This document shows, in pieces, positions 1 through 58,793 of a stretch of 64,000 nucleotides of DNA (position 1 is the stretch's first letter; every line of letters starts with the position of its first letter). The DNA comes from Armatimonadota bacterium (GTDB lineage: Bacteria > Armatimonadota > UBA5829 > DTJY01). Location of the stretch: contig JAGONM010000007.1 of NCBI GenBank assembly GCA_017993055.1, positions 50,960 through 114,959 on the forward strand, written 5' to 3'. The notes under the pieces were generated by a model. The model made no database searches, had not been told where the DNA came from, and saw nothing but the letters and a program-made list of their open reading frames with translations. The translations under genes were made by a program, and so were the position numbers.

Positions 1-585
1 GCGGTCCTATCGTCTATCAGGGCGGCGAAGGGCCGTGCGGACGGCGACGCTATCATGCTGAGCGACAAGATCGTAAGCGCCAACTACGCGACGTTCTTCT
101 ATATCTGCGAGGACAGGACGAGCAAGCGAGTCTCAGGCATACGGGTCGCAGGCAACTCACCAACACAGGGATACTTCGCGGACGTTGCGGGGATTCTGGC
201 AACCGTCAACGGCGAACGGGTGATCACCGCGCCTGACACGATGACAGAGACGGGACCCGGAGCGCCTGACCCGTTGTTCATGAACAACCGAAGCGTGGGA
301 GGAGAGGCGCTCAACGTGTACACCCCCGGCGTAACAGGCGGCCTCGGAACTCATAATATCGGCATGCTGGTGACCATCGCGGGCAGGGTCGTTGAGTCTG
401 CGACGGGATGCTTCGATTTGACTGACGGCGCACGAGCGGTGAGAGTCAGCACGGCCAGGCTGACGTCGGTGCCAGGCATCGGTTCGTTAGTCAAGGTTAC
501 CGGCATAGTCTCGACGGAGCAGTCAGGAGACACGATTACGGCAGTCGTTCTGCCGCGAGGCAACTCGGACGTGTCCCAGTTCTGA
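1..585 (+). CDS. 3' end of a larger secreted-protein gene (5' end lies outside the window); carries a ~195-aa C-terminal module shared with the giant subtilase
   Basis: Frame 1 is open from nt 1 (AVLSSIRAAKGRADGDAIM...), so the ATG at 55 is internal. The residues align by eye with the last ~195 aa of the 2692-aa ORF (FFYICEDR..SGIRV vs FYVQEEDRSCGIGV; TVNGERVI vs TVDGERIV; NIGMLVTIAGRV vs NIGLLVKTWGRV). A hairpin terminator follows. Confidence 0.6.
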   Translation, partial: AVLSSIRAAKGRADGDAIMLSDKIVSANYATFFYICEDRTSKRVSGIRVAGNSPTQGYFADVAGILATVNGERVITAPDTMTETGPGAPDPLFMNNRSVGGEALNVYTPGVTGGLGTHNIGMLVTIAGRVVESATGCFDLTDGARAVRVSTARLTSVPGIGSLVKVTGIVSTEQSGDTITAVVLPRGNSDVSQF

Positions 586-1629: not shown

Positions 1630-1696
1630 AGTATCTCACGGATCAGTGCAGTGCTCTAGTATTGGGGGCACATCGCTACACGACTCCGGTGTTTGT

Positions 1697-1909: not shown

Positions 1910-1924
1910 GTCAGTCTCCTCTCG

Positions 1925-10109: not shown

Positions 10110-10773
10110 GGAGATTATAGGAGCGGGACGCGTCGCGGTGGACGGCCGGGTGATCACCGAACTCGGAGCCAAGGCCGATCCTGAGGAGTCGGTCATCACC
10201 GTTGACGGTAGGCCCGTCAACCTGCGCCCGGAGAAGGTCTACATCCTCCTCAACAAGCCGCGCGGCTATACGAGCACGACCCGCGACCCGCACGCCCGAC
10301 ACGTGGTGACTGATCTCGTCAGGAGCATCGAAACCCCGATCTACCCGGTCGGCCGTCTCGACGTGGACACCGAGGGTCTGCTCATCCTCACGAACGACGG
10401 GGATTTCACCTATAAGATGACCCATCCGAGCCATCAAGTGCCGAAGACATACCGCGCCGAGGTGCGGGGCCTAGTGGCCGAGCAGACCGCCAACCACCTC
10501 GCAACCGGAATCGTGCTCGATGACGGCATCACCGCGCCAGCGGAAGTGCGAATCGTCAGCGCGAACAACGTGAAGGGGACGAGCGTGATCGAGGTGACGA
10601 TCCACGAGGGCCGGAAGCGTCAGGTGCGCCGGATGCTCGACACAGTCGGCCATCCCGTGATACGATTGACCAGGACGAAGATCGGCGAACTGAAGGCCGG
10701 AAGTCTTCTGCCGGGCGAATGGCGTCTGCTGAAGCCCGCCGAGGTCAGGGCGCTGACGGACTCGGCATCGTAG
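10048..10773 (+). CDS. rluB: pseudouridine synthase, RsuA/RluB family
   Basis: S4 domain (RLQKLLAAAGVASRREAEEII.AGRVAVDG) plus the catalytic motif GRLDVDTEGLLILTNDG. Confidence 0.8.
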   Translation: MEQRLQKLLAAAGVASRREAEEIIGAGRVAVDGRVITELGAKADPEESVITVDGRPVNLRPEKVYILLNKPRGYTSTTRDPHARHVVTDLVRSIETPIYPVGRLDVDTEGLLILTNDGDFTYKMTHPSHQVPKTYRAEVRGLVAEQTANHLATGIVLDDGITAPAEVRIVSANNVKGTSVIEVTIHEGRKRQVRRMLDTVGHPVIRLTRTKIGELKAGSLLPGEWRLLKPAEVRALTDSAS

Positions 10774-21232: not shown

Positions 21233-21471
21233 GCGTGCCACCGCCTTCCGAGGAAACAGTATAGCGGAACGAAGGCGTAGATGCAACGCCTCAGGGAGGT
21301 TGAAACCGCGGCAACAAGTGCGCGAAGTCCACCTCCGTGGACTGAGAAGTCGCGGCCCCTACTCCCAGTGTCCGCAGGGACACTTCGTGCCTTCGTTGCC
21401 GTGACTTCAGTCGCCCGGAACCGATGGGCCTCCACCAGTCGTACATAAGGACGTGGCGCACCCGCTCTTCT

Positions 21472-21500
21472 TTGACAGGGCAGGCGTCGGATGGTAGAAT
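21472..21500 (+). promoter_or_regulatory. sigma70-type promoter for secA
   Basis: TTGACA (21472-21477), 17-nt spacer, TAGAAT (21495-21500), about 35 nt upstream of the secA ATG. Confidence 0.65.
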
Positions 21501-21535
21501 GAACCGGTTAAGAAAGCGGGTATCAGAGTCACATT

Positions 21536-33157: not shown

Positions 33158-34233
33158 TCTTCCCGCCAGATGAGGTAGATGCCGATCAGGCCGAAGATGA
33201 TATTCTGCGACCAGCCGGCGACTAGCGGCGGCACCATTCCGCCCAGCCCGAGCGCCTTGCCGAGCCAAATGTTGTTCTGATAGAGAAACATGACGATGAT
33301 GCCTAGCAGTATGCCGGAGTAGCTTCCGCTGCGCGCGAACCGCAGGCCGAGCGGAGCGGCGCACAATGCGAAGACAAGGCATGACAGCGGCACCGACACC
33401 TTGAAGTGCCAGTTGACTTTCATGTCTCTAACCTCGCGGCCTACGTCGCCGAAGGCGGTGATCTGCTGTTTCAACTCGCCCAGGCTCATTTCCTCGGCCG
33501 TTCGCTGAGTCTCCCACAGTTCCTGCGAGACGCGGCGGAGGTTGAGCTTCATCGAAGGGAACGCCATCTCGTACTCCATAAGGCCGTCCTTGCCGAGCTT
33601 GTGCATCACGCCCTCGCGCAACGTCCAGAGGTTCTTGTCGTTCGAAGCCTCCTTGGCCGTGATGAGCGCCGGGAAGCCTTCAGCAGTAGAGGGCTGGTAG
33701 ATCATCACCTCTCGCAGCACGATCTTGTCCGTGGATGCACGCTCGACCCGGCCGACGTAGAACCAGTAGCCCTCGGATTCGAAGAACACCCTCTCCTGGA
33801 TGGCCGGAATCGCCTGTATGCCGTATATCTGGCGGACGGTCCGCTGTGACTGGCGATTCGCCCACGGGGTCACCGTCTCACCTATCCAGAGGGCGAGCAC
33901 GCTGCACAGCAGGCCGACGACGAAGATCGGCAGGAATATGCGCCGGAGCGGAGTGCCGGACATCCGGATGGCGGTGAGTTCGCTGTCGCGGGCGAGCCGG
34001 TTTACCGAGAGCGAGGTGGCAAAGAGCACGGCGAGAGGGAGTACCATCCCCATAACCCAGGGAATGCGGTAGGCGATCAACTTCGACGCCAGCCCGAAGG
34101 GCACCCCGAGCCTGACCAACTGCTCGATGTTGTCGAATATGACCCGCCCGATCAGGAGAACGACGAACGCAAACATGCTGATCAGGAACGGGGCGATCAT
34201 CTCTCTCAGGACGTAGACGTCCAGCTTCTTCAT
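33154..34233 (-). CDS. LptF/LptG family LPS export permease
   Basis: YjgP/YjgQ architecture: 3 TM, a periplasmic beta-jellyroll, then 3 TM. N-terminus KKLDVYVLREMIAPFLISMFAFVVLL. Confidence 0.85.
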   Translation of the reverse strand: MKKLDVYVLREMIAPFLISMFAFVVLLIGRVIFDNIEQLVRLGVPFGLASKLIAYRIPWVMGMVLPLAVLFATSLSVNRLARDSELTAIRMSGTPLRRIFLPIFVVGLLCSVLALWIGETVTPWANRQSQRTVRQIYGIQAIPAIQERVFFESEGYWFYVGRVERASTDKIVLREVMIYQPSTAEGFPALITAKEASNDKNLWTLREGVMHKLGKDGLMEYEMAFPSMKLNLRRVSQELWETQRTAEEMSLGELKQQITAFGDVGREVRDMKVNWHFKVSVPLSCLVFALCAAPLGLRFARSGSYSGILLGIIVMFLYQNNIWLGKALGLGGMVPPLVAGWSQNIIFGLIGIYLIWREE

Positions 34234-36121: not shown

Positions 36122-38242
36122 ATGCGACGACGTCTGCAACTCACTCTGATCGCAACGGCTCTCGCCGCTCAGGGCATATCCGCACTCGGAGGAGACATGA
36201 CCGGCAATACGGTTGACTGTCTGTTGAACGGTTTGAGAATAAGCCTGGACGCGCGCACCGGGAGCATCGTGCGGCTCGCATACCCCGGAGTCGGCGAAAT
36301 GCTCAAGTCCGCGCCGGAGCATGCCGCAATCATTGACATGGCCTACCCCGTCAAGGCCTTCGCTCCGCTGAGACTCGCGTCACGCTTTTCATCCGACGCG
36401 AAGATTGATGTCACCGACAACACGGTCACGATCTCGTGGTCGGCTCTGGGCGCCAGTCGAAAGGCCTTTCCGGTCGAGGGCAGCGTCTCCGCCGTCGTTA
36501 CGCTGAGAGCCGATCCGGACGGACGCAGTGTGGTGATGTCGTGCCGGGTGTTGAACTCATCGAAGAACGAGATTCGGCAGGTGTTGTTCCCTGACTTCGC
36601 GGGGATTCAGCCGTTCGCCGGAGTGCATCAGACCTACTTCCGCACGTGCGGGTTCAACAGCCTGCCGTTCCGCGATCTCGCGCCGAACGAGGGAACGAGG
36701 AGCCTGCAGTACATGCTGGACGCGGCCGCAAACCAGGTGGAATACCAGTCGGGCGGGATGTTCAACCCGATGTGGCTCCGGTGGATGGACCTCGGCGGAC
36801 TCAAGGGCGGGGTCAGTCTCTTCCCCAGGCGCTGGGGATGGGACCCGCACATCCCGGTCCGCCTGCACCTATCCGAGGACGACGGCTCTCTGCGCTTGCT
36901 GGCGAGGCACGATGCGACTATCAAAGAGGGTGAGACCTGGGAGAGCGGCGAGTATGTGCTGACCCCGCACCAGGGCGGATGGGCGAAGGGAATCGAGCCG
37001 TACCGCGAGTGGGTCAGACAGCACTACTTCAGGGAGTTCCCGGTCCCGAAGCATGTTAGAGAGGGGCTGGGATTCCGCACGGTCTGGATGTGCGAGCTCT
37101 ACCCGGAGGATCCCGAAGACGTCATCTTCAAGTGGAGCGACATGCCGAAGGTGGCGAAGGACAGCAGAGAGCACGGCATAGACGAGATGGTCGTCTGGGC
37201 ATGGACGGACGGTTTCGTGCTTCCTATCCGCCCGCCGTTCAAGCACCTGGGCACTCAGGAGGACATGGCGGCAGCGGTGAAGGAGTGCAAGGCCTTGGGC
37301 GTGAATGTCGTGCCGTTCATCAGCGTCGTGCAGGCAAACGCGGAGGAAGCTCCCAAGTACGGGCTGAAGGTTACGGACAACAACGGGTGGACGTATCACA
37401 CCGAGCTCATCCCGCGCTGGAACCCTCCGTATGCCACCGCTTACGCCTGTGTCGGCATCCCCGTGACGAACGAGTTGTGGCGCAGGGATGTGCTCGCATC
37501 GCTGAAAAACCTGACGGACCAGGGCATTCCCTCGGTTGGGTGGGACCAGTTCTGGACTGTGAACAAGGACGCGAACACGCACAGCCTGACGAAAGAGATA
37601 CGAGCTTACGCCAGCGCAAGGGATCCCGAAGCGACGTTCTGCGGCGAGGAGCTGTGGAACATGGAGCCCGACAGCGCCTATCTGGACTACACCTGGAACT
37701 GGGGCGGATACCGGGACTGCCGGGGCTTCACAAATGCGTTCCCGGCTCCGCGGATCAACAGCTGTATCACGGATTCCGCGCTCACTGTGAAGCAGTGCTT
37801 CGCGGACAACCTATACCTGAACCTTTCGCCGCGCAAGAAGGGGTCCACGAACGCATCGGGATACATCGGGGACAGCGAGGCGATGAGCAAGGCTCTCAAG
37901 CAGTGCGCGGCGCTGAGGAAGAAGTTCCTTCCGTACTTCACAGATGGCGTTCTGATCGGAGAGTGCCTGCTCACCGAACCGTGCCCGCAGGCGTTTGTCT
38001 GCTCCTACGTGCTGAAGGACAGGGCGCTTATGATCTTGATCAATCAGGGGGGCAAGCAGAGCATCGGGTTCGACTGCGACCTCACACCGTGGATAGCGTC
38101 GGAGTCGCGAGCGTACACCGCCAGATCGTACGACGGCGACGGAGCGCGGATCTCGACGACGGACGTCAAGTCCCAGTGGCACGGTGAGACCCGCATCCTC
38201 GAGCCGGAGGAGATGGTCATATATGAGTTCAGAGCGCGCTAG
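36122..38242 (+). CDS. secreted hypothetical protein, possibly a glycoside hydrolase (TIM-barrel-like central region)
   Basis: Signal peptide. The ATG lies 1 nt after the proS stop. Good GC3 bias. No motif I can assign with confidence. Confidence 0.45.
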   Translation: MRRRLQLTLIATALAAQGISALGGDMTGNTVDCLLNGLRISLDARTGSIVRLAYPGVGEMLKSAPEHAAIIDMAYPVKAFAPLRLASRFSSDAKIDVTDNTVTISWSALGASRKAFPVEGSVSAVVTLRADPDGRSVVMSCRVLNSSKNEIRQVLFPDFAGIQPFAGVHQTYFRTCGFNSLPFRDLAPNEGTRSLQYMLDAAANQVEYQSGGMFNPMWLRWMDLGGLKGGVSLFPRRWGWDPHIPVRLHLSEDDGSLRLLARHDATIKEGETWESGEYVLTPHQGGWAKGIEPYREWVRQHYFREFPVPKHVREGLGFRTVWMCELYPEDPEDVIFKWSDMPKVAKDSREHGIDEMVVWAWTDGFVLPIRPPFKHLGTQEDMAAAVKECKALGVNVVPFISVVQANAEEAPKYGLKVTDNNGWTYHTELIPRWNPPYATAYACVGIPVTNELWRRDVLASLKNLTDQGIPSVGWDQFWTVNKDANTHSLTKEIRAYASARDPEATFCGEELWNMEPDSAYLDYTWNWGGYRDCRGFTNAFPAPRINSCITDSALTVKQCFADNLYLNLSPRKKGSTNASGYIGDSEAMSKALKQCAALRKKFLPYFTDGVLIGECLLTEPCPQAFVCSYVLKDRALMILINQGGKQSIGFDCDLTPWIASESRAYTARSYDGDGARISTTDVKSQWHGETRILEPEEMVIYEFRAR

Positions 38243-41378: not shown

Positions 41379-44300
41379 CTACTTCGCCTTGCTCTCGTCG
41401 TCCCTGCGAAGCACCGTGACCCCATACGGCTCGACCCTCACGCCCTTGATCACCGCGCTCCCGTCGGCATTCCGCAGAACGGTTGCCCCCTCGAAGCCGC
41501 TCACACTCAGCTTCTTGACGCTGAGGTCAAAATCGGTACGCTTGCCGAACCGCTCCTTCACGAGGATCATCGAAGAGTCGTCGGCGATGTAGACCCCGAC
41601 GTTGTCCGGCGCGGAGATCGCGGGCTCTATACCGGCGAGCAGCAGCATTCCCTCGAAGAGAGGAGCGATCGCGTTGTACGGCTCCTGCTCCTTCTCCTTG
41701 CCCCAGACAGCATCGTAGGCCATCCCGAGGTAGAAACCGCACGAATACACCGGGTTGCCGTTGATGACATTCCGCACGACGACCGGATTGCCGTCGAGTT
41801 CGAGGACGGACTCTACCGGCGGCGTCACTGAGTCAAATAGACCGATCTCGCCGTTGTCCGGGAACTGAAGCGGAAGCGCCTGACCCTTGAACGCCTTGCC
41901 GAAGTATCTCGCGAACTGCATCTCGACCGCGCCGGAAGTGGGGATCCGGCGGCTGAACCCAGCCACCCCGGTCAGCCGGACGAAGTTCGGGTAGACCGAC
42001 TCCGGCGAACACGGGTTGAAATAGGCGTCCTGGTCCTGATAGAGCCCTAGGCAGAGCCCTCGACGGCCCGCGGCGCGCGGATCTGACAGCCAGTCGCCGA
42101 GCATCTGCCAGGTGTTAGCACTCAGCATCTGGTTCTGCGCAGGTACGAAGATGAAGCTATACTTGCTCAGGTTGATCTTGCCCGTATCGAATCCGCCCGG
42201 GCTGACGTCCGAGTCGGGCAGTATGTCGAAGGGGATGTGCAGTTGGCACAGGATACTCGCCAGGTAACGGACGTTTCCGTAGTCAACGCCGGGGCTCATG
42301 CCGAATATCGCGTCTCGGTTCCGGAGGATGAGAACCCTGGCGTTGGGGTTGAATGTGAACGGCACGCCCTCGATCTGCCTCAGGAAGAGGCCGAGCGCAC
42401 CGAGCGTCTCGAGGTCATAGGCTTCCGGTTGGTCGAAGGTTCGACCGGCGATGAGGTTCCAGTCGTAGCTCTGGAAGAACGCGCCCCCTCCGCCCACTAT
42501 GTCCGTCAGCCACCAGGGATAGTAGGCGCGGACGCCCTCGCGGCTCTTGCCGCCGCCGCCCTCGCCGCACGCGAACCCCTTGGCGGAGCCGACCGGTATG
42601 TACGGCCCGTAGGACGCCACGTTCTGCACGTACTCCCTGCACGAGGCCCAGTGGGGCACGCCGGAGGGATCGAACCCGTGATCGTGCTGGCCGACGCCGA
42701 TCAAATCCCATCTGAGCCGCGCGCGGTCGAATGAGACGATAGAATGCCAAGACGGCATGAAGTCGAACGGATCGCAGTAGTAGAGGAGGTGATTCGGATC
42801 GGCCTCGCGCAGGGAGTCGGCCAGCGAGTTGAGCCGACTGATGATCAGACCCTCCCTCATGCGGCCGAAGTCAATCCACATCGGGTCGCGGACGAGGTTC
42901 TGCTGAGATGTCGGCATGTCCGCCAGCGGCGCATACGGCGGGTCAGGCGAATGGTAGTAGTCGAACAGCGGCAGCCGAACGTCCTCGAAGGAAGCCCAGG
43001 AGTCGAAAGCGCCCTTGACGAACGGGTACTCCGGCCACATGACCTCCCGCCCTTCAACGGTCCGCTTCGCCCACAGGGAGCGGTCGTCGGTCCTGTAGCC
43101 GTATCTCCAGGCGCGCTTCAGGCCGGATATCGTCCCGTAGTCGCGGCGCAGGAATCCCTTGTACCGCTCCAGCATCGCAGGCTCGTCGAGACAGGTATCG
43201 AAGAGCAGGTCCTCCTCGCCGACCATGACCGCGATGATGACTGTGCGGTTGCGGTAGTAGCGCATGATCTTCGCGTAGGCGTCCCTGGTCGCATCCCACA
43301 GTTCATCGTGGAGCAGGATCTTCCCGCGATACTGGGGTGGAACGACCTCAGGGTGCAGCCCCCAGTAGAACGACGGCTCGACGTTCACGTAGAGACCGTG
43401 GGCCTGCGCCCGATCGAGGAAGTAGTCGTAGATCTCGTAGACGTACCTGAAGTACGGCAGCCTGTCGCCGTGCGGCTGTTTCTCGACCTCCTTCCACGTG
43501 CCGTCGGTGTTCAGCAACTCACTCCAGTTCCAGAACCTCGGTTGGACGTTGATGTTTGCCGCCTTCATGGCGGTGAAGTCCTTCTCAAGGAGATCGTAAT
43601 CGTACTCGGGTATGTTGATGATCCACCCGCCGTCCTGCTTCGGCTGGCTGTAGATCGTGAAGAACGGGCGGAAGACCTGCCGGTCGCGCTCTAGGAGGCC
43701 GGTCTTCGGACTGAGCTTGACGAACCCCCTGAAGAGTTCCGCGTACTCCGGCGAGAGATACTCGGCCTTGAACTCCGAAAACTGAGGGTGTCGCCCGGGG
43801 TCCGTCACTGCGGCCATGTTCAACCTCCGCTCGGTCAACCGCGCCTGCAGGCTCTCCCACGGCTCAGGCAGCACGAAGCCCCACGGGCTCGTGGGATAAC
43901 CGCCGATGACGCGAACCGGCTGCCAGGAGGAATCGTCGAAGCGAAAGCCGTTCCATCCGTCCGGCGCTTCGGGGATCGAGCGCCAGGTCTCATCCGAGGC
44001 GAAGTCGGCGGCAGTGCCATCGTCGAATCGGACGACGACGCGGCAGATGAGGCCCGCCGAACCGCCGGTATCGGAAGTCCTGACCGCGATGACCGAGTTC
44101 TCGCGCGCGGTGGGCGGGTTGACCTCGTACCGCTGAGGGGATCGCCAGTCGCTGCCGGAGCCGATCATGCGGCTGTTGACCCACAGCTCATAGGAATCGT
44201 CGGCGGTGATAAGGATATCGAACGCCGTGACGGGCTTGTCGAACGTGACGGCCTTGCGGAGATACGCGTTCCCGGAGTCCGGATGCCTGATCCACTTGGC

Positions 44301-44408
44301 GCCGTCGAAGTCCCTGCCGGGCGATTGGCAGTACGCCTGGCCGCAGACAGCGATCAGGATGAGTGATACGAGCAGCAACCGGGCAGCGAACTTAGAGACC
44401 AAGACCAT
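41379..44408 (-). CDS. large secreted glycoside-hydrolase-like protein with an N-terminal galactose-binding-like domain
   Basis: Signal peptide MVLVSKFAARLLLVSLILIAVCG (start at ATG 44408 or TTG 44402). N-terminal pattern AKWIRHP..YLRK.F....A.DILITADDSYELWVN as in rhamnosidase-N/CBM-like domains. The central region looks like a GH42/beta-galactosidase-like TIM barrel. The upstream 100 codons of the ORF track are rejected. Confidence 0.45.
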   Translation of the reverse strand: MVLVSKFAARLLLVSLILIAVCGQAYCQSPGRDFDGAKWIRHPDSGNAYLRKAVTFDKPVTAFDILITADDSYELWVNSRMIGSGSDWRSPQRYEVNPPTARENSVIAVRTSDTGGSAGLICRVVVRFDDGTAADFASDETWRSIPEAPDGWNGFRFDDSSWQPVRVIGGYPTSPWGFVLPEPWESLQARLTERRLNMAAVTDPGRHPQFSEFKAEYLSPEYAELFRGFVKLSPKTGLLERDRQVFRPFFTIYSQPKQDGGWIINIPEYDYDLLEKDFTAMKAANINVQPRFWNWSELLNTDGTWKEVEKQPHGDRLPYFRYVYEIYDYFLDRAQAHGLYVNVEPSFYWGLHPEVVPPQYRGKILLHDELWDATRDAYAKIMRYYRNRTVIIAVMVGEEDLLFDTCLDEPAMLERYKGFLRRDYGTISGLKRAWRYGYRTDDRSLWAKRTVEGREVMWPEYPFVKGAFDSWASFEDVRLPLFDYYHSPDPPYAPLADMPTSQQNLVRDPMWIDFGRMREGLIISRLNSLADSLREADPNHLLYYCDPFDFMPSWHSIVSFDRARLRWDLIGVGQHDHGFDPSGVPHWASCREYVQNVASYGPYIPVGSAKGFACGEGGGGKSREGVRAYYPWWLTDIVGGGGAFFQSYDWNLIAGRTFDQPEAYDLETLGALGLFLRQIEGVPFTFNPNARVLILRNRDAIFGMSPGVDYGNVRYLASILCQLHIPFDILPDSDVSPGGFDTGKINLSKYSFIFVPAQNQMLSANTWQMLGDWLSDPRAAGRRGLCLGLYQDQDAYFNPCSPESVYPNFVRLTGVAGFSRRIPTSGAVEMQFARYFGKAFKGQALPLQFPDNGEIGLFDSVTPPVESVLELDGNPVVVRNVINGNPVYSCGFYLGMAYDAVWGKEKEQEPYNAIAPLFEGMLLLAGIEPAISAPDNVGVYIADDSSMILVKERFGKRTDFDLSVKKLSVSGFEGATVLRNADGSAVIKGVRVEPYGVTVLRRDDESKAK

Positions 44409-44552
44409 CCTCCGGAGATGCGCCGCGTCACCGGGGGGACGGCGCGTCGTATATACAGTTATACGTCGGGAATCGGACTCCTGCACGTATGGTAGATACC
44501 CGGTTTCCGGCAAAGGAGTATGCATGGCAGCCGCCGAAAGTAAGATCGGTAT

Positions 44553-44582
44553 TTGATTGTAGGTTTGCAGAGGTTGTAAGCT
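44553..44582 (+). promoter_or_regulatory. candidate promoter for the membrane-protein gene
   Basis: TTGATT, 18-nt spacer, TAAGCT in an AT-richer divergent region. Confidence 0.35.
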
Positions 44583-44602
44583 CTGAGCCATCGGAGGTTT
44601 GC

Positions 44603-45595
44603 GTGAGAAGGCTTCCCCTGTTCCTGTTCGCGGTCGGTGCCGTGCTGCTGCCCGGCTCGGCGTGGTGCAATCCGGTGCCGGCAGGACCGCTTGATCTGCT
44701 GCCAGCAATCACCGTTTTCAATTACACAATCGATCTGTTCTTCATTATCCTGGCTCTACTCATTATCCGCCCGGCGGACAAGGTGCCGCTCTGGAAGGTG
44801 CTCAAGATCGCGTTCCTCGCCATGATCGCCGGACTCTGCGCGGATGCCATCGGAGCACTCGCCGCGGGATGGGTTGCTTATTCGGGAACCATCAGAGCTG
44901 CGGTCGGCGGCTTGACCGCATACGAGACCGATCTCATCGGGTTCGTGGGCATGGTCGCTTTTCCTGTTCCACTGATACTGGTGGCTAACTACGTCCTGGG
45001 ACGGATCGGCTTCCGGATGACCCGACGCGAGGCGCTCTGGTACGGGCTGATCATCGGGCTGGCCACCGCACCCATCACGTCCGCCGAACTGACATGGGCC
45101 GTGTACAGCGATGCGGGGGCAAGACTCATGGCGACCGCTCTGCTGGTCTTCGGGCTGGGTGACCTGATCCTGCTGCTGGTGCTCAGAAAGGGTAGGCGCG
45201 CGGGGCTCCCCGTGAAGCTCACTACCTTTGCATGCGCGCTCGTCCTGGTTGGGATTTCGATACCGATACGCGTGCATCAGGTCCGCACCGAGATCGAGTA
45301 TCTACCCGAGCAAGCATGCCACTCGCAACTCATGGCAATCCGTAGGGCGCTAGACAACTATGGCCGCGACAATCCGGACGAGTTGCCTGCGAGACTAGGG
45401 CTCCTCGTGCCGAAGTACGTGCCGAAGCCGGACCTCCTTCGCTGCCCCGTGCACAAGAGAGGCGAGGATGGGTCGGCGTACATCTACAGCCCACCCGAGG
45501 GAGAATCGCTGCTCAGTGAGATAATGAGCGTACACTGTCCGGCCCACGGCCATGAATTCCACGTGTCGGGTGCCGTGAAGCAGAACGGTCGCTAG
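44603..45595 (+). CDS. hypothetical polytopic membrane protein with a Cys/His-containing C-terminal domain
   Basis: GTG start 5 nt after the GGAGG at 44593-44597. Signal-like N-terminus, about 7 TM segments and a soluble C-terminal domain (ACHSQLMAIRRALDNYGRDNPDELP...CPVH...CPAHGHEF). Confidence 0.45.
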   Translation: MRRLPLFLFAVGAVLLPGSAWCNPVPAGPLDLLPAITVFNYTIDLFFIILALLIIRPADKVPLWKVLKIAFLAMIAGLCADAIGALAAGWVAYSGTIRAAVGGLTAYETDLIGFVGMVAFPVPLILVANYVLGRIGFRMTRREALWYGLIIGLATAPITSAELTWAVYSDAGARLMATALLVFGLGDLILLLVLRKGRRAGLPVKLTTFACALVLVGISIPIRVHQVRTEIEYLPEQACHSQLMAIRRALDNYGRDNPDELPARLGLLVPKYVPKPDLLRCPVHKRGEDGSAYIYSPPEGESLLSEIMSVHCPAHGHEFHVSGAVKQNGR

Positions 45596-50396: not shown

Positions 50397-53300
50397 TCAA
50401 AGAACCACGAGATCTCCCGAACTCCGAAGTCTGATCTTCGGGTGCAACTCGTCACCCACGAAGTAGCACGAGCTTACCCCGACAACGCTCACGTCGGCAC
50501 CGAGTGTCGGAGGCAGCGCACCCGCCGGGAGGTCTACCCTGATCCGATCAAAGCCGTGCGCCAGGATGAAGAACCCGGGCGTCGGAGATGGATCCACAGT
50601 ATCCACCCTGCCCCACGTCTTCACGAGAAGGCCGATGTTATTGAGACCATCTTTGCCCGCGATCCCCCTCTGTCCTACCGGAGGAGGGCCGACGTTGTAG
50701 CCAAGACCGCCACCGCCGAGCTGCCTCTCAAAGACGCCTATCGGGATCGGGACTAGCGAGTCCGGGTCGTTCGGGATCACGGCGGACGCCTCCACGATCC
50801 GCTCGCCGTCTACGGTGACCATGACGCCTCGGACCGCGGCAAGATCGCCAATGGAAGGCATCGGCCCCGACCACAGCACGCCGATGCCGCACGAGCGATC
50901 CTCTTCCTGGACATAGAATATGCCCGCGAAGACGGCGCTTACGCGCCTGGCATCGAGGCTCACGGGCACGCCGTCGGACTGGAGCTTGCACGCACGAGTA
51001 CTCCCCGATACCGCAATAGTGAAGACGCCGTCGGACTCGTCACCCGCCGGAACAGCGCCGTTCCGAGAGATTCTGATCCGGTATTCGGCAGAGGCGGGCA
51101 GGCCCGCGGTATTCCAGTTGAATGAACCCGAGTTGTATGGCAGTGCGGAAGCGCCGAGGACATCTGCCCAGGCCGAGCCGCCGTTGGGCGAACACTCGAT
51201 CCGGACGGTATCTCCCTGCGTCCAGTCCGGTCCGAGAGCGGTCCAGAGAATCGGAACGGGATCTCCCATACGGTAGATCTCATCGCCGTTCGGGGCGTCA
51301 AGCCTCAGCGCCGCGCCGCTCGCGATGAAGTTGGCAACCTGCGACCGCTCCCCGAGCGTCATGCCTGCCAGGCAGTTCTGAGCCGCGTTGAGCAAGGACA
51401 ACTGCTCCGCCCTGGCAAGGGAGGCGCTCCTGCTGTGGCCCTGCGCGCCGAAGTGCATTATGATCCTGGTCTGATAGGGCGCGAGCGGAAGTTCGTACCC
51501 GTAGCCGACGAAACCCATGGTGTAGGAAACGACGTTCGGCGACACGGCTGCTCCCGGCCCGGCGATCACATGGGTAACGGACGGGTCGTTCACACCATCC
51601 GCATCGTCAGTGACTATCCAACGGTCGGAGACGTCGAAAATGCTGTCCCCACTCGACGTCCCCGCAATCACGGTCAGGTTGTCGGAGCCGAGGTTCGTGT
51701 CGATCCTCACGGTATGGTTGATTGGCGAATCACCCAGGTTGGTTACTATCTCCAGATATCGGCAGTAGGCCCGGTCGGAGGGCACGTAGATCTTGCGGGT
51801 AACCTTCACGCCGGTTGTGGCTCCGCTGTCGACCACTACTTCCCTGACGTCGTTCTCGATTCCGGCTACTGAGACGTTCGGGAATCCGCTCAGGACGTAT
51901 CCCCCGTCGAAGGCGTCGCTGGTCCCATCGGATATGCTTCCGTTCTGTTGGATATCCCATCGGAAGCCGTCGCCGTCAGTTAGCACGAATGGCAGAGTGA
52001 CCAGACTGCGAACCGTAAAGCATCTGAGTTGGGTGGGCGCTCCCCCCGGCTCGACAGATGTGTTCGCCGCCGCGGATGCGTCCGCGGCACGTATGTAGTA
52101 GCAGTACCTGTCGCCGTCCTGGCTGGGACCGGGAATCTGCCCGGAATACTGGTCCGGCAGATCCGTCGAACTCATTGCGACAGCGGTGAAGCGCCCATCG
52201 TTCTTCTTCCAGTAGAGCGTCACACTGCCGACGGCGTAGTTGTCGGTGACCCCGGCGTAGACCGTGTAAGGTCCCGTCAGGTCCTCGCTGTCCACCAAGG
52301 GAGAATGGCTGATCACCGGCGGCACGGTGTCGGGTGCGACGGTGAAGGTGGCATTGGAAACATCGGATATGCCCTCATTTGGCGGGAACACTACACGGAC
52401 CAGGTAGCCGGCCGAAGACGGCAACCCGGATGTGTTCCACTGGAACGAGCCGGACACTCCGTTCAGATTCTGAGCTCCCGGAATCACAACCCAATCCGAC
52501 CCGGCGTTTGACGAATACTCGAGCCTGACCTGATCACTCTCCTGCCAGTCCGTGCCAAGGGGAGTCCAGTTGACCGTGACGAGAGTTCCGGCTTCGTACC
52601 ACTCGCCGCCATTCGGCGAGTCCATGCGTAGGAATCGGCCGGATTCAACCACACTCAGCGTGACCGGCATCACGAAGACGGGAACGGCATAGTCGTTGCT
52701 GATCAAGGCGATCTTGCCGGTCTCACTGAATCGGTCCGACAGCCCGGCGGCGTCAACGCTGACGGTGATCTGTTCCGACCCGCCCGGCTGAACCGTTCCG
52801 CTCTTCGGCGAGACATCGAGCCACGAGACCCCGGCCAGCAGAAGAGACCGGTGCAGATTCAGCCGACCGCCGGTGAGCATCTTGCCCGCAAGAGCGGGCT
52901 TCTCGTCAACGCCATCGAGTATCCACTGCTTGATCTGGCCGCATGTGGCATCGGGGTTGGCCGACTTCAGCAAGGCGCATGCGCCGGCCACGAAAGGGGC
53001 CGCCATGGACGTGCCGTCCTTGTTGCCGTAGCCGTCGTTCAGCACGGTGCTGAGCACCGCCAGGCCCGGCGCGGCAAGATCAACAGTATTGAGCCCCCAG
53101 TTCGATCCTCCACCCGACGGCCACTGAGCCAGATCGTCGTTGTGGTCGCTGGCGGCGACGGATATGATATTGGAGAGACTATAGCTGGCCGGATAGTAGG
53201 GCGCCGTATCGGTGTCCACGCCCACGTTCCCAGCGCAGGCGACGAAGAGCTGTCCGAGGTTGCCTGCGGCCGCGATTGCATCTACCAGGGCCTGGGAGTA

Positions 53301-56300
53301 CGCGCCGCCTCCCCAGGAGTTGCACGACAGGCGGGCACCCATCCGCGAGGCATATTCGATGCACTCTATGGCATCGCTCGTCTGCCCCGAGCCGCTCGAT
53401 CCCGCGAACTTGAGGGCCATGATACGGGTGCTCCAGTTCACGCCTGCGACCCCAGTGGAATTGCCCCCGACTGCGCCGAGGATTCCGGCGACATGGGTAC
53501 CGTGCGAGTTGTCGTCCGCGGGGTTGGAATCGTTATTGCGGAAGTCGTATCCGTGCACGTCATCCGCGAAACCGTTCCCATCGTCGTCTATCCCGTTTCC
53601 CGGGATTTCGCCCATGTTGACCCACATGTTGGCAGCCAGATCGGGATGGGTGTACGAAACGCCCGTATCAATGACCGCAACGACTACGTCACGCCCGCCG
53701 GTGTAGATTCCCCAGGCCTCCGGCGCGTCCACGTCCGAGTCCTCAATGCCACCGCTCTGACCTGTGTTGTTCATCCCCCATTGGCTACCGAACATCGGAT
53801 CGTCGGGGATGCTCTCGACGGAGACGATGTAGTCCGGTTCCACGAACGCGACGCCCGGCATGGCCGCGTATTTCGCCGCAACCTGCCTGAGGTCAACGCC
53901 TGCATCCACCTCTACGAGATCGGCCGAGACCAGCTTGAAGCTGTGGACGACCTTGGCCCCCGCCCGAGCATGCAGGTCCGCCCTCTGCGCCGACTGAACC
54001 TCCGGGCGGACACCGACGATCAGCCTGCCCGATGCATGAGGCACCGACCAGTCAACCTCGGGTCTGTCTTCCGCAGTGTAGAAAGCCTCCGACGGCTCGG
54101 CGACTATGCTGGTGGCGCCTCTTTCGACGATGCTCCAGTGCAGCGGCATGCATCCGTTGTTGGATATGATGACCGATGCGCTGTCCGTGCCACCCGGCGG
54201 CAACTCAAACAGCAGGCTGCCCTGCGAAAGTCCGATGGTCGCGCCGACGATCTCGAAGCAGTAGTCACCCGTCACCGGACTCCTCGTCACGTTCGGCGTC
54301 GAGGCAGCGTCGGCGGCTTCAATATAGTAGCAGTACCCACCGGCGCAGTTGAGGCTCGGGCCGGGAACGGCCCCGGCGTACTCGCTCGGCACGCCCGTGG
54401 GAGTCATAGCCACCTGAGTGTAAGACCCGCCGTTACCTTTCCAGTAGAGAGTGACCGTCCCGATCCCGAGGTTGTCGGTAACCACGGCGGTTACGATGTA
54501 CGGGCCGTCGGTATTGTTAGTATCTTCAAGCGGCGTATGAACGATCACGGGCGCAACGGTATCGAGGGCGACGGCGAAGTCACCGTCTGATGCATCGCTC
54601 ACCGCCGGATCAACGTTCGAGACGACCCTGACCCGGTAATGGCTGGACATCGGCCACCCGGAGGTGTTCCACGCGAACGACCCGGCCTTGTGAGAGAGGC
54701 TCTCCGCGCCGGGTATCTGCGTCCAGTTGGCACCGGCATCCGGGGACGCTTGGAGCCTCACCGTGTCGCCGGTCAGCCAGCCTTCGCCGACGGCAGTCCA
54801 CTGTATCGTCACAGTGTTTCCCGGTTCGTACAGCTCTCCGCCGTCGGGCCGCACTATCGTGAGCCTCGGACCGCACGGATAGGAGGACAGGTCGCTGGCG
54901 ACGTAGTCGGCCGGAACGCCGTTGCCGGCCGAGAGCCCGACGACGCATCTGTCGGCTTCGAGGGTCAGGTAGGAAAGAGTGATCTTCCCGTTGTAGAACA
55001 GCTCGACCTGGAAGGTGTTCGAGTTAGTGGTGCCGTATTCCCGGACACCGAGAAAAGTGACCACGACGCGATCCGTCAACTGCCGCCAGGAGACGTCCTC
55101 GCTTGCATAGAGATCGGCGAACAGGGCCGATATGCGCCTGAGCGCAAAGTGATTCTGCAGCAGGACTTCGCGGCTCGAGTCGCCCGAATCGAACGTTATA
55201 TAGCCGTTGCTACCGACGTAGAACGATCCGTACGTCTGGCCGTAGAAGGAAATGAGCTCCCCGGCCTGCAGATCAACCCTAGTGTAGTTGTCGTCACCCA
55301 GCGGAAGCACCGCGCCACCGGTCGGGTCGGTCGGCAGTTCGTCGATCGGGTGACTGCAGGCTGCATAGAAACTGCGCGAACCGTCCGGCGTGAACTCGAT
55401 GCTCATGTTCTCTATGTCGAGTTCGCCCGTGCTGAACGTCTGGGTGAAATAGTCGGATTGATCTATCACATCGAAGCAGAACGACTGCCCCACCTGCGAG
55501 GGGAGCCGACCGACGTTGTGTGACGAGGAGGAGTCAGTAGCCTCCACGTAGTAGCAGTAGCCGTCGCCCACCACGCTCGGGCCGGGAATCCCTGCGTAGT
55601 ACGCGCCCGGTCCGGCAGATGTCATTGACACGGACGAATACGGTCCGCCGTTCTTGCTCCAGTGGAGTTCCGCCGAGGCGATACCCACGTTGTCGCTGAC
55701 CTCGACGAACACATAGTATGGACCTGTAGCGTTTGCCGTGTTGCCGAGCGGTGTGTGGATGATCACCGGAGGAGCCGTATCCGGGCCGACCGTGAAGTCG
55801 CCGTTAGATTCGTCGGTGACCGATACATCGCCGACAAACGTGATCCGAACCCTGTATTGCTGAGTCTGCGGGAGGCCGCTGATTACCCAGTTGAAGAAGC
55901 CTGCGTTGTAAGGGACACTCTGGGCTCCGGGAATAGGGGACCATGTCCCGCCGGCATCGGGCGAGTATTCGAGCTTCACCCTATCCGAGGGCTGCCAGTT
56001 GTTCCCTGAGTAGCTCCAGATAATCCTGGCCGTGGTGCCGGGCTCGTAGCACTCGCCGCCGTTCGGTTTTACTATCGTTAGAGCACGCCCGACGAGGAGG
56101 CACTTCGGATAGCCGGAGAGATCGCTCTCCACGAAATCCGCCGGAACGCCCGAACCGGCCGAGAGGCCGACGAGACCGTCGGATGCGGCGATGTTCAGGT
56201 AAGAAACCGTGATGCGGCCGTCGAAGAACAACTCGATCTGGAAGGTATTCTGCGTCGTGGCTCCGTACTCTCGAACGTTCAGATAGGTGACGGCCACGCG

Positions 56301-58475
56301 ATCGGTGAGCTGCTTCCAACTAACGCCCGTACCGGGGATCAGGTCGTCGAAGAGCGCAGCCACACGCTTGCGGCTGAAGTGGCTGAAGTAGGATTCCGCA
56401 TAGCTGCTGTCGCCCACGTCGAGAGTGACATAGCCGTTGCCGCCCACATAGAACTGCGTTCGCATATTGCCATAGAGCGATATCTGCGCCCCGCTCGTCA
56501 AAGTCACCAGGGCGGAATCGTCGTCCGCCAGGGTGATCTGCGTTCCGCCCGCCGGGTCGGTCGGCAGTTGGAGTATCTGGCGCGTGCAGAGCGAGTAGTA
56601 CTCGTCCGAGCCGTCCGGCACGAACTGGAGCGACGTGTAAGCAAGATCAAACGGCGCGGTGTCGTAGAGTTCCGTGAAGTGCCCAGACCCTTCCGTGGAC
56701 TTCGGGGTGACTCCGATGCGAAACTCCGCCGTTTCAGTCCCCTGGCCCACGACCCTGAGCCGCAGGGTATAGAGCTGATTTGATACGCCGGTCACATCCC
56801 AGTCCGCCAACTTGCCGCGCACCACCGCAGAGAAGCCGGTCGCGATAGTAGACCAGGAACTCGGCTGATGGCCCGCGCCGTAGTCGAGAGTCCACGATGC
56901 GAGGCCGGGGCCTCGCGCGGTCCCCCATATCGCCACCGTTCCCGAAACCTCTGAGCTGCTGTTTGGCGAACTGACAAACGCTGTCATCGGCTCGGCCGAG
57001 GTGATCGTGCTGTAGGCATTCACTCGGCCGAAACCGCTGTACTTATCGAATCCCGGGGTGCGAACGTCGTCTGCCCGCATCTGAATTGCCTGACGGACCT
57101 GCTCATTTGACCATGTCGGGTGCGCCGCGAGAACCAGACCGGCGAGGCCGGAGACGTGCGGGCAAGCCATTGACGTGCCCGCCATCCGATAGTACTCGCC
57201 GCCGACAACCGCCGTGCCCGGTCCGCATTCGCCGGACAGCGGATCGGTAGTCCCAGCGCGAAGTGAGAGGCAGTTGTGAACCGCGCACGCAGGGGTCGAG
57301 AGGTAGCCGTTTCCACCCGGCGCCGCTACCGACGCCTTGATGCCCCAGTTGGTGAACGGACACGCCTCGTCGCTGGGATCGGTGGCCGTAACTGTTATGA
57401 CGTAGTTGTCGCAGGCCGGATGCTCGGCCGCGAGATCTGTAGCGAAGTTCCCGGCGGCAGCGCAGAGGACGACTCCCTGCGCGTGGGCGTATTCAATCGC
57501 CTCGTGGATGGTCTGGGAAAACCCCTCCCCACCCCAACTCATGTTTATCACATTGGCGCCGGCGTTAGCCGCGTAGATGATCGCCTCGGCGAGGTCGGAG
57601 TCGAAGCCGTTTCCGGAGTTGTCGAGGCCCTTGACGGCCATCAGCTTGCACTGCCAGTTGACGCCCGCAATCCCTATGCCATTGTTCCCAACCGCGCCTA
57701 TCGCGCCGGAAACGTGGGTGCCGTGGCCGTTGCCGTCCATGGGATCATTGTCTTTGTAGGCAAAATCGTACCCGTACACGTCGTCTATACGGCCGTTGCC
57801 TTCGTCGTCGAGACCGTTCGCCGGAACTTCGCCCGGATTGGTCCAGATATTCGCGGCGAGGTCCGAATGCAGGTAGTCTATGCCCGTGTCAACAACGGCG
57901 ATCACTACCGTGGCATCCCCGGTCTCGATGTCCCATGCATCCGGACACTTCATGATCTCCATGTCCCACTGGTCGCGGTAGTTCTGTCCCCAGGAGTTGT
58001 TTGAGAGCCAGTAGGGATCGTTCGGGTCCACCCGCGATGCGCGGCGGATTCGGTCGGGCTCCGCATACTCGACCTCGGCAAGCTTCGAATACTCGAGGGC
58101 GACCTCGACGGGGTCTCTTGCCTCGGACAACTCCAGCAGGTAGGTGCGATCGAGCTTCCGGGCGAGGCCGTTCGGCAGCGGTTTGCCCTCGAAGGCCCGG
58201 CGGAACACGGGACGCATCTGGCTTACGCCGTGCCTCACATTGAGCGCATCCACGGCCGGCATCCTGGTTGAGGCGAAACCCTTCGGACCGCGGGAAACCG
58301 AAGGTGGGGATGAGAACTTGACGATGATCCGGCTGGGAGAGTACTCGGGCTTGGCGATGCCATGACCGGACGCGCCGCCTTTAACCCCGGCAGTGGCGGG
58401 AAGCGCCGCTACCGCCGCAAGCAGCACGAGTGTGAAGAAACACCGAGCCAGTCTGAGTCTTCCCAGCAAGGACAC
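50397..58475 (-). CDS. giant secreted multidomain protein with two propeptide+S8 subtilase units
   Basis: Signal peptide. Unit 1 has an I9-like propeptide and an S8 triad (VVDTGID, HGTHVSG, GTSMACPH). Unit 2 has a second I9-like propeptide and triad (VIDTGVS, SHGTHVAG, GTSMAAPF). Also 2 NIDO-like domains, 4 beta-sandwich modules, 3 Ig-like modules, one unassigned domain and a C-terminal module. GTG start at 58475 (or TTG at 58469). Confidence 0.85.
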   Translation of the reverse strand: MSLLGRLRLARCFFTLVLLAAVAALPATAGVKGGASGHGIAKPEYSPSRIIVKFSSPPSVSRGPKGFASTRMPAVDALNVRHGVSQMRPVFRRAFEGKPLPNGLARKLDRTYLLELSEARDPVEVALEYSKLAEVEYAEPDRIRRASRVDPNDPYWLSNNSWGQNYRDQWDMEIMKCPDAWDIETGDATVVIAVVDTGIDYLHSDLAANIWTNPGEVPANGLDDEGNGRIDDVYGYDFAYKDNDPMDGNGHGTHVSGAIGAVGNNGIGIAGVNWQCKLMAVKGLDNSGNGFDSDLAEAIIYAANAGANVINMSWGGEGFSQTIHEAIEYAHAQGVVLCAAAGNFATDLAAEHPACDNYVITVTATDPSDEACPFTNWGIKASVAAPGGNGYLSTPACAVHNCLSLRAGTTDPLSGECGPGTAVVGGEYYRMAGTSMACPHVSGLAGLVLAAHPTWSNEQVRQAIQMRADDVRTPGFDKYSGFGRVNAYSTITSAEPMTAFVSSPNSSSEVSGTVAIWGTARGPGLASWTLDYGAGHQPSSWSTIATGFSAVVRGKLADWDVTGVSNQLYTLRLRVVGQGTETAEFRIGVTPKSTEGSGHFTELYDTAPFDLAYTSLQFVPDGSDEYYSLCTRQILQLPTDPAGGTQITLADDDSALVTLTSGAQISLYGNMRTQFYVGGNGYVTLDVGDSSYAESYFSHFSRKRVAALFDDLIPGTGVSWKQLTDRVAVTYLNVREYGATTQNTFQIELFFDGRITVSYLNIAASDGLVGLSAGSGVPADFVESDLSGYPKCLLVGRALTIVKPNGGECYEPGTTARIIWSYSGNNWQPSDRVKLEYSPDAGGTWSPIPGAQSVPYNAGFFNWVISGLPQTQQYRVRITFVGDVSVTDESNGDFTVGPDTAPPVIIHTPLGNTANATGPYYVFVEVSDNVGIASAELHWSKNGGPYSSVSMTSAGPGAYYAGIPGPSVVGDGYCYYVEATDSSSSHNVGRLPSQVGQSFCFDVIDQSDYFTQTFSTGELDIENMSIEFTPDGSRSFYAACSHPIDELPTDPTGGAVLPLGDDNYTRVDLQAGELISFYGQTYGSFYVGSNGYITFDSGDSSREVLLQNHFALRRISALFADLYASEDVSWRQLTDRVVVTFLGVREYGTTNSNTFQVELFYNGKITLSYLTLEADRCVVGLSAGNGVPADYVASDLSSYPCGPRLTIVRPDGGELYEPGNTVTIQWTAVGEGWLTGDTVRLQASPDAGANWTQIPGAESLSHKAGSFAWNTSGWPMSSHYRVRVVSNVDPAVSDASDGDFAVALDTVAPVIVHTPLEDTNNTDGPYIVTAVVTDNLGIGTVTLYWKGNGGSYTQVAMTPTGVPSEYAGAVPGPSLNCAGGYCYYIEAADAASTPNVTRSPVTGDYCFEIVGATIGLSQGSLLFELPPGGTDSASVIISNNGCMPLHWSIVERGATSIVAEPSEAFYTAEDRPEVDWSVPHASGRLIVGVRPEVQSAQRADLHARAGAKVVHSFKLVSADLVEVDAGVDLRQVAAKYAAMPGVAFVEPDYIVSVESIPDDPMFGSQWGMNNTGQSGGIEDSDVDAPEAWGIYTGGRDVVVAVIDTGVSYTHPDLAANMWVNMGEIPGNGIDDDGNGFADDVHGYDFRNNDSNPADDNSHGTHVAGILGAVGGNSTGVAGVNWSTRIMALKFAGSSGSGQTSDAIECIEYASRMGARLSCNSWGGGAYSQALVDAIAAAGNLGQLFVACAGNVGVDTDTAPYYPASYSLSNIISVAASDHNDDLAQWPSGGGSNWGLNTVDLAAPGLAVLSTVLNDGYGNKDGTSMAAPFVAGACALLKSANPDATCGQIKQWILDGVDEKPALAGKMLTGGRLNLHRSLLLAGVSWLDVSPKSGTVQPGGSEQITVSVDAAGLSDRFSETGKIALISNDYAVPVFVMPVTLSVVESGRFLRMDSPNGGEWYEAGTLVTVNWTPLGTDWQESDQVRLEYSSNAGSDWVVIPGAQNLNGVSGSFQWNTSGLPSSAGYLVRVVFPPNEGISDVSNATFTVAPDTVPPVISHSPLVDSEDLTGPYTVYAGVTDNYAVGSVTLYWKKNDGRFTAVAMSSTDLPDQYSGQIPGPSQDGDRYCYYIRAADASAAANTSVEPGGAPTQLRCFTVRSLVTLPFVLTDGDGFRWDIQQNGSISDGTSDAFDGGYVLSGFPNVSVAGIENDVREVVVDSGATTGVKVTRKIYVPSDRAYCRYLEIVTNLGDSPINHTVRIDTNLGSDNLTVIAGTSSGDSIFDVSDRWIVTDDADGVNDPSVTHVIAGPGAAVSPNVVSYTMGFVGYGYELPLAPYQTRIIMHFGAQGHSRSASLARAEQLSLLNAAQNCLAGMTLGERSQVANFIASGAALRLDAPNGDEIYRMGDPVPILWTALGPDWTQGDTVRIECSPNGGSAWADVLGASALPYNSGSFNWNTAGLPASAEYRIRISRNGAVPAGDESDGVFTIAVSGSTRACKLQSDGVPVSLDARRVSAVFAGIFYVQEEDRSCGIGVLWSGPMPSIGDLAAVRGVMVTVDGERIVEASAVIPNDPDSLVPIPIGVFERQLGGGGLGYNVGPPPVGQRGIAGKDGLNNIGLLVKTWGRVDTVDPSPTPGFFILAHGFDRIRVDLPAGALPPTLGADVSVVGVSSCYFVGDELHPKIRLRSSGDLVVL

Positions 58476-58793
58476 ACCTCATCTCGGAACGGAACGTACC
58501 CGCGCGTGAACCGCCAGATCACGCGTTCTCGAACCTGCAGGTCGGTGCCCGTGCCGCAGAGAGGGTCAACATCGTGAGCCGAATATGATTGCAGGCTGCC
58601 GCATAAGGACTATGATAGCTACGAGCGCAACGAGGTATCCCTCACGCGCGGAACGGACACACCCTGCTTTTATGACGGGCTGAGAGTCGCAAAGGTTCTA
58701 CAAATCGCCATATTTGTGGCTGTTTTCTTCCCAGTATTTAGTATCGGCAGACGCGAGGCGGCACTGCAGAGGACGCCCGGTCACCGGCGAAGT

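Follow-up and report, generated by a model that had tools for sequence, protein, structure and literature searches.

A tandem propeptide-subtilase protein of an uncultured Armatimonadota bacterium: a predicted secreted polyprotease with a common but experimentally neglected layout

The stretch of DNA analysed here, 64,000 nucleotides (nt) of contig JAGONM010000007.1 from an Armatimonadota bacterium (assembly GCA_017993055.1), is referred to as the window, and it carries on its minus strand a very long open reading frame (ORF), 50397..58475 (-), in whose translation two propeptide-plus-subtilase (S8) units follow each other. This locus raises the question of whether one gene can truly encode two complete proteases and, if so, what a propeptide lying in the middle of the chain would do. 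The answer favoured here, with a probability of about 0.55, is that the product is a Sec-exported and probably cell-surface-associated ‘polyprotease’, which would degrade extracellular protein and would split itself at the internal propeptide.

The catalytic domains provide the first part of the evidence. The Pfam model Peptidase_S8 (PF00082) matches two stretches of the protein, with 383.6 bits against a cutoff of 21.8 and an E value of 8e-115. Subtilase unit 1 (56931..57953 (-), residues ~175-515) has the catalytic residues D196 (57888-57890), H251 and S435 and the oxyanion Asn N343, while in subtilase unit 2 (52833..53738 (-), residues ~1580-1881) the corresponding residues are D1603, H1658, S1823 (53007-53009) and N1750. 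Both units hold the catalytic Asp, His and Ser in the expected order, together with the oxyanion-hole Asn, and both are predicted from these residues to be catalytically competent. A second unit in the form of a pseudoprotease was considered and rejected on the basis of its intact D, H, N and S.

The propeptides were recognized by a different family from the one expected. Internal propeptide 2 (53811..54053 (-), residues ~1475-1555, ending in ...VAFVEPDYIVSVES / IPDDPMF), delimited by Pfam and by the alignment with PDB 3VV3 described below, matches the Fervidolysin_NPro-like model (PF22148) at residues 1475-1548, with an E value of 1e-13 in the whole protein and with 44.4 bits and an E value of 2e-11 as an isolated segment. 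Propeptide 1 (58014..58343 (-), residues ~45-154, ending in ...VEYAEPDRIRRAS / RVDPNDPYW) was placed by Pfam, a local profile and its conserved junction. The same model reaches it at residues ~110-141 with 22.7 bits against a cutoff of 21, over the last 32 profile positions only; there is also a weak Peptidase_S8_N match, and the local propeptide profile covers residues 111-154. No Pfam match to Inhibitor_I9 (PF05922) was obtained on the isolated propeptide segments at E values up to 1. At both propeptide-mature junctions the canonical EPD...(N/D)DP motif is found, and it is conserved in the orthologues; the first junction reads ...YAEPDRIRRAS/RVDPNDPYW and the second ...FVEPDYIVSVES/IPDDPMF..QWG. 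A preliminary description of this DNA, made from the letters alone, had claimed two propeptide-plus-S8 units with intact triads, and these are confirmed by the two Pfam S8 matches, the two prodomain matches and the residues at the positions claimed. Profile support for the second unit, on which that description had made itself depend, was also obtained, in the form of the 44.4-bit prodomain match and PF00082. Its assignment of the propeptides to the I9 type has to be given up, as the Fervidolysin_NPro-like family matches instead.

The intact residues also bear on the idea that one of the two units serves as a non-catalytic binding module, as CspA does in the fusion protein CspBA. This precedent, and a weak NCBIfam match to CspBA and CspC at residues 1768-1836, speak for it; however, D, H, oxyanion N and S are kept in both units, in all orthologues and in the domains surveyed, and the CspBA model (NF040809) scores 45.3 bits against a cutoff of 1250, which leaves a pseudoprotease role for either unit very improbable.

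A protein of this size with repeated modules may also be the result of two genes falsely joined in assembly or annotation. The ORF comprises 2692 codons, opens with GTG and contains 0 internal stops, in agreement with the single uninterrupted minus-strand frame reported before. Translation could start at the first in-frame codon, GTG 58475, or at TTG 58469, an ambiguity of a few codons; within 58469-58480 (-), a GAGG lies 1 nt upstream of the former and 7 nt, the ideal spacing, upstream of the latter. The N-terminus, MSLLGRLRLARCFFTLVLLAAVAALPATA|G, reads by inspection as a Sec signal peptide (58389..58475 (-), residues 1-29, ...LPATA|G, including the start region). The database gene call (P0001) begins at codon 17, with which the charged n-region of this signal peptide would be lost. 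Scans for promoters and terminators gave no signal above chance.

An independent assembly of short reads, contig L008 of Logan SRR31836873, is 98.8% identical in nucleotides across 13.3 kb, with identical flanking genes. Its ORF has the same length, and the 39 synonymous and 15 non-synonymous codon differences are scattered over both halves, a pattern that fits a gene under purifying selection. Five orthologues (P0002-P0006), 62-65% identical over 86-92% coverage, keep both propeptide-plus-S8 units, and the contigs that carry them include one of 290 kb and one of 5.37 Mb, the chromosome of an Armatimonadetes metagenome-assembled genome (MAG; OY970325.1). On that chromosome (locus L001) the frame changes at ~10551-10554, between propeptide 1 and S8 unit 1, and the longest ORF runs from 10503; this is either an assembly indel error or a real frameshift, that is, a local defect. 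In the other orthologues the reading frame is intact.

The false joining of two genes could draw on the repeated protein modules within the ORF and on the frame change near the N-terminus at the L001 locus. Nevertheless, a repeat-driven chimera is not credible, because the protein repeats are only 41-59% identical and the longest DNA repeat inside the ORF measures 47 nt, at 64-77% identity. Misassembly was rejected on this lack of long DNA repeats, on the equal ORF length in the second assembly and on the common layout of the five orthologues, and an artefact of either kind is considered extremely unlikely. A stop, a frameshift or a chimeric join between the two halves, which had been named beforehand as grounds for abandoning the description, was not seen in the ORF, with the second assembly and the five orthologues in agreement. 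Judged by these sequence comparisons, the 2,692-residue protein is a genuine gene product of an uncultured Armatimonadota bacterium. In the genome collection, the matches that reach 51% identity or more come from three Armatimonadota/Armatimonadetes MAGs and one unclassified MAG, by which the window is placed in Armatimonadota.

The two units are not copies of one another. They are 41% identical, and each has its nearest relatives elsewhere: for unit 1 these are single-unit proteins of ~1,550 amino acids (aa), at 54-69% identity, whose named loci are Armatimonadota MAGs, and for unit 2, outside the orthologues, they are units of multi-S8 proteins from other phyla, at 55-59% identity. Unit 2 aligns with the catalytic domain of deseasin MCP-01 (PDB 3VV3) over residues 1556-1880 (325 residues) with an E value of 4e-98; in this alignment the first residues of the deposited chain (..ATNDPRF) pair with IPDDPMF from residue 1556 on, directly after propeptide 2. 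The best PDB match of unit 1 is also 3VV3, with an E value of 1e-55 and an alignment broken by insertions. Unit 1 carries Cys-rich insertions (C..NC...C) at residues ~395-421 (~57210-57290 (-)), which flank the conserved strand before the catalytic Ser, are common to the single-unit relatives, and are absent in unit 2 and in the subtilases of other phyla. Probably they form loops stapled by disulfides, which would alter the substrate cleft. On this alignment evidence the units belong to different subfamilies, unit 2 being deseasin MCP-01-like. An origin of unit 2 by recent internal duplication was rejected; the tandem came about instead by the joining of two subfamilies, because the units share only 41% identity and each is nearer to the domains of other proteins.

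How such a chain would mature can be approached by analogy. What is known of subtilase maturation comes from enzymes that have a single propeptide and a single catalytic domain. The propeptide serves as an intramolecular chaperone; once cleaved in cis, it stays on as an inhibitor until it is degraded (PMC7200643). In the polyprotease proposed here, each S8 domain would fold with the help of the propeptide immediately before it, acting as an intramolecular chaperone; the first would cut its own junction in cis near RRAS|RVDPNDP (~residues 154-157), and the second would do the same near SVES|IPDDP (~residues 1553-1556). The second cut would break the chain, giving an N-terminal fragment with the first S8 domain, the repeats and propeptide 2, and a C-terminal fragment of ~1,140 residues with the second S8 domain, the Ig domain, the sandwiches, the supersandwich and the OB module described below. 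Both fragments would be held together non-covalently through the contact of propeptide 2 with the second S8 domain until this propeptide is degraded, after which the putative anchor would stay with the C-terminal fragment only. Splitting at the internal propeptide is a reasonable expectation from what is described of subtilase maturation.

The main rival differs at this very step. In it, one chain is kept, the internal propeptide is a tethered inhibitor, and the second S8 domain stays latent until it is cleaved in trans by the first or by another protease, which would make the protein a two-stage, internally regulated enzyme. Subtilase propeptides inhibit their cognate domains strongly (PMC7200643), and cross-activation is conceivable because the units are of different subfamilies and have different loops adjacent to the cleft. 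On the other hand, the second S8 domain has all catalytic residues and a canonical junction homologous to those of autoprocessing subtilases, and no hint that cleavage in cis is blocked was found in the sequence; a retained, latent chain is thus considered unlikely on balance, while being the foremost competitor of the self-splitting polyprotease.

More than half of the protein lies outside the protease units. The stretch after S8 unit 1 (56688..56930 (-), residues ~516-596) is probably beta-rich, with weak self-similarity to residues 845-921; a Pfam scan of the isolated segment gave no match. It is followed by two copies, located by self-BLAST, of a block composed of a NIDO-like domain, a Kre9/fn3-like sandwich and an immunoglobulin (Ig)-like module (54222..56687 (-), residues 597-1006 and 1007-1418), and the alignment of residues 597-1012 with 1007-1418 shows 41-59% identity. 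Altogether, the sandwich of ~105 aa occurs four times, starting at residues 796, 1202, 1946 and 2387, and the Ig-like module, also of ~105 aa, three times, starting at residues 902, 1309 and 2052. The third sandwich and the third Ig-like module lie together at 52011..52640 (-) (residues 1946-2155) and the fourth sandwich at 51009..51317 (-) (residues 2387-2489), both identified by self-BLAST. Directly after unit 2, an Ig-like domain of the HYDIN/VesB/BACON type (52647..52832 (-), residues ~1882-1943) is indicated by matches slightly under the Pfam cutoffs, PF22544 with 23.7 bits and BACON_2 with 22.5 bits.

Within the repeat blocks, the Pfam matches to NIDO, Kre9_KNH, Reelin_subrepeat-B and fn3 are all sub-threshold. 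NIDO (PF06119) reaches 14.1 bits in the query and 18-24 bits in homologues, against a cutoff of 25, and Kre9_KNH (PF10342) reaches 22.4 bits in the query against a cutoff of 24.6, and 25.8 bits in the homologue P0038. Therefore, of the accessory modules listed in the preliminary description, the two block copies, four sandwiches and three Ig-like modules stand by self-BLAST, whereas the names NIDO and Kre9_KNH are plausible labels whose scores in the query lie under the Pfam cutoffs.

Between the third Ig-like module and the fourth sandwich lies a 233-aa domain (51312..52010 (-), residues 2156-2388), for which no Pfam match was found on the isolated segment. Its AlphaFold2 (AF2) model, with a predicted local distance difference test score (pLDDT) of 86, was matched by Foldseek to GH94 phosphorylase N-domains, the YidC P1 domain, aldose epimerases and polysaccharide lyases, with E values of ~1e-5 and a query-normalised template modelling (TM) score of ~0.5. 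From this model the domain is predicted to be a galactose-mutarotase-like beta-supersandwich; carbohydrate binding is common among domains with this fold. The orthologues (62-65% identical) carry two copies of it, which accounts for their extra ~440 residues. The same domain was also seen in P0104 and P0111, which are otherwise distant matches of the query.

The protein ends in a module of ~205 aa (50400..51008 (-), residues 2490-2692). Taken from residue 2488 to 2692, it gave no match to any Pfam or NCBIfam family, known sorting domains such as the type IX secretion system C-terminal domain (T9SS CTD), PEP-CTERM, LPXTG and others included. In the AF2 model (pLDDT 84) it forms two beta-barrels split by a disordered Gly/Pro-rich loop, and Foldseek returned weak tandem OB matches (HIN-200, RPA, YgiW), with whole-module TM scores of 0.3-0.45; the module is predicted, from this model and these matches, to be a tandem OB-fold and not an Ig-like CTD. 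The preliminary description had noticed that it is shared with a gene at the other end of the window, and this holds: the 3' end of that gene, which is cut by the window edge at 1..585 (+), was found by tblastn and phmmer to carry the same module, with 32.5% identity between the ~205 aa and the translation of 1-573 (+) (tblastn E value of 1e-15, phmmer E value of 1.6e-19). At the L001 locus, a further gene with this module was observed at 21179-21718 (-), ~2 kb downstream of the orthologue.

A word-indexed search with the C-terminal module alone returned 4 fragments and missed the orthologues, and a full HMMER search was needed. By using a HMMER profile built from 20 copies, 5,135 representative proteins were found, 3,810 of them with E values of at most 1e-10 and 1,336 with E values of at most 1e-30. 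Among the best 150 of the 5,135, whose lengths range from 200 to 4,500 aa, the module stands mostly at or close to the C-terminus, although in several of them it is internal, N-terminal, or present in 2-3 copies. Ten carriers that were scanned have unrelated N-terminal content, comprising SBBP, LVIVD, NHL and PD40 propellers, beta-helices, Ig domains and a C39-like peptidase. A mostly C-terminal position on proteins with unrelated domains of exported type is the pattern that a generic anchoring or sorting domain would show, which makes the module a candidate for an undescribed domain of this kind.

Taken with the protease units, these domains bear on what the protein would do. Degradation of extracellular protein is likely because unit 2 resembles MCP-01, the protein starts with a signal peptide and it has many binding-type domains; as with deseasin MCP-01, extracellular or particulate protein would be broken down as a source of nutrients. 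The different loops beside the cleft of unit 1 suggest a complementary specificity, so that two cleft architectures would probably widen the range of substrates, and the accessory domains would bind substrate or matrix. A main role outside nutrition, such as remodelling or maturation of the bacterium’s own surface layer or matrix, adhesion, or attack on other microbes, would be in keeping with the share of the protein, more than half, that consists of binding-type domains (NIDO-like, Ig-like, supersandwich, OB folds) and with a C-terminal module common to many non-enzymatic repeat proteins. Yet the characterised protease most similar to unit 2 scavenges nutrients, and no partner genes lie nearby, and such a role is therefore judged quite unlikely.

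Several points weigh against the self-splitting, surface-associated polyprotease. Propeptide 1 fits the prodomain model over its C-terminal third only. As some subtilases fold without their propeptide and others retain it in bound form, neither cleavage nor release can be taken for granted. A protein of ~280 kDa would also have to pass an outer membrane, and the structural matches of the predicted tandem-OB module that would serve as anchor are weak, with the TM scores of 0.3-0.45 given above. Finally, no functional link was found between the protease gene and its neighbours in the window. These neighbours encode an HD-domain protein, a GFO/IDH/MocA oxidoreductase, GH2 and GH106, and the remaining window is housekeeping (SecA, transketolase, PBP5, HlyD/FtsX). 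Elsewhere in the window, an ORF of 1109 aa at 41379-44708 (-) has no Pfam match at E≤1e-3, and three others, at 30971-33382 (-), 36122-38242 (+) and 1364-2824 (+) (803, 706 and 486 aa, respectively), have none at E≤1e-5.

Whether this layout is peculiar to one bacterium was addressed by a survey of the query and its 120 best database hits, a set of 121 proteins in which ranking by total score favours multi-unit proteins, so that the counts are not natural frequencies. Two S8 domains, each with a detectable propeptide directly upstream, are present in 77/121 proteins, and three complete propeptide-plus-S8 units in another 12, which gives 89/121 with two or three. Eight proteins have two S8 domains and one detectable propeptide, and 24 have a single unit; expressed over the multi-unit proteins, a propeptide precedes every S8 domain in 89/97. 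The His, Asn and Ser are present in all 230 S8 domains surveyed and the Asp in 229/230, the exception being an alignment gap. Named sources of multi-S8 proteins are Sumerlaeia, Kiritimatiellae, Opitutales, Pirellulales, Okeania and Microcoleaceae cyanobacteria, and Marinimicrobia, and the database entries are annotated solely as ‘S8 family serine peptidase’. At the level of predicted proteins, the survey shows dozens of distinct families with the multi-unit layout.

Within one protein, the identity between units ranges from 41 to 100%, with a median of 54%, and the query stands at the heterologous extreme. This spread argues that the layout arose or was remodelled many times. In P0035 and P0092 the S8 units are 100% and 99% identical, respectively, which reflects either internal duplications of very recent date or errors of assembly in these records.

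The preliminary description had taken the layout to be undescribed and had proposed a database search for ORFs with two such units. Such ORFs were found in number, and the claim of novelty falls with the 89/121 proteins that carry two or three units and with CspBA, a published pro-S8-pro-S8 fusion (PMC7200643). In a literature search limited to open-access papers, which gives weak negative evidence, no extracellular protein with two active subtilase units was encountered. The layout is thus common in environmental bacteria and represents an experimentally neglected class rather than a one-off. A wider proposal, offered tentatively and with less confidence than the reading of the single protein, is that polyproteases may form a widespread and unrecognised class, in which internal propeptides would be self-cleaving joints, two or three proteases of differing specificity would be delivered per exported precursor and at first held by non-covalent propeptide-enzyme binding, and, in this lineage, the tandem-OB module would be the anchoring or sorting domain, one that thousands of further proteins of exported type would employ as well.

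Proteins with two or three units raise questions about the order in which they fold and cleave, about the internal propeptide as a programmed breakage point, and about the association of the products. They are abundant in metagenomes, in phyla that are mostly or only uncultured or poorly studied, may contribute to protein turnover in the environment, and represent a source of new protease pairs. Moreover, the shared C-terminal tandem-OB module may mark an undescribed route of protein sorting or surface attachment.

In comparison with known systems, the parts of the protein are well known, and as a whole it joins many database proteins of a similar kind that have yet to be studied. MCP-01 is the principal S8 protease secreted by a deep-sea Pseudoalteromonas, and it acts on casein and collagen (PMC6606773). 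The catalytic domain of unit 2 resembles this deseasin, from Pseudoalteromonas sp. SM9913, with the 3VV3 alignment given above; both proteins are secreted (the query by its signal peptide), and both have an N-terminal propeptide and C-terminal binding domains. In contrast, MCP-01 has one catalytic unit, while the query, at ~3 times its length, adds a second S8 unit of a different kind. The PKD domain of MCP-01 is reported, in the titles of the literature, to bind collagen; no Pfam match to a PKD or P-proprotein domain was found in the query, where the C-terminal architecture of the deseasin was not encountered.

CspBA, from Clostridioides difficile and other Peptostreptococcaceae, also has the order pro-S8-pro-S8 in one ORF, and its biology includes the splitting of the fusion. 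The authors who describe it point out explicitly that the two halves would come apart if the second unit processed itself (PMC7200643). The second unit of CspBA is, however, a pseudoprotease, and the fusion is split by the cysteine protease YabG (PMC7200643), whereas both triads of the query are intact. In addition, CspBA is an intracellular regulator of spore germination of ~125 kDa, while the query is larger, has a signal peptide, carries ~1,000 residues of accessory domains between its units and scores far below the cutoff of the CspBA model.

Closer relatives are found among the single-unit proteins of ~1,550 aa (P0011-P0020; loci L002, L003 and L007, of which the named L003 and L007 are Armatimonadota MAGs). 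Among the loci of the single-S8 relatives, three bear an organism name, two of them Armatimonadota MAGs and one an unclassified MAG. These single-unit proteins share with the query the signal peptide, propeptide 1, S8 unit 1 with its Cys-rich insertions, the block of NIDO-like, sandwich and Ig-like domains and the C-terminal module, and their N-terminal ~1,000 residues are 52-57% identical to it, but they are without the second propeptide-plus-S8 unit and without the supersandwich domain. The multi-S8 giants of other phyla, on the other hand, resemble the query in having 2-3 units with intact triads in 1,600-4,400 aa, with Ig/BACON/HYDIN-like spacers; they differ from it in their other accessory domains and C-termini, and in that their units are often close paralogues, compared with the 41% identity that separates the two units of the Armatimonadota protein.

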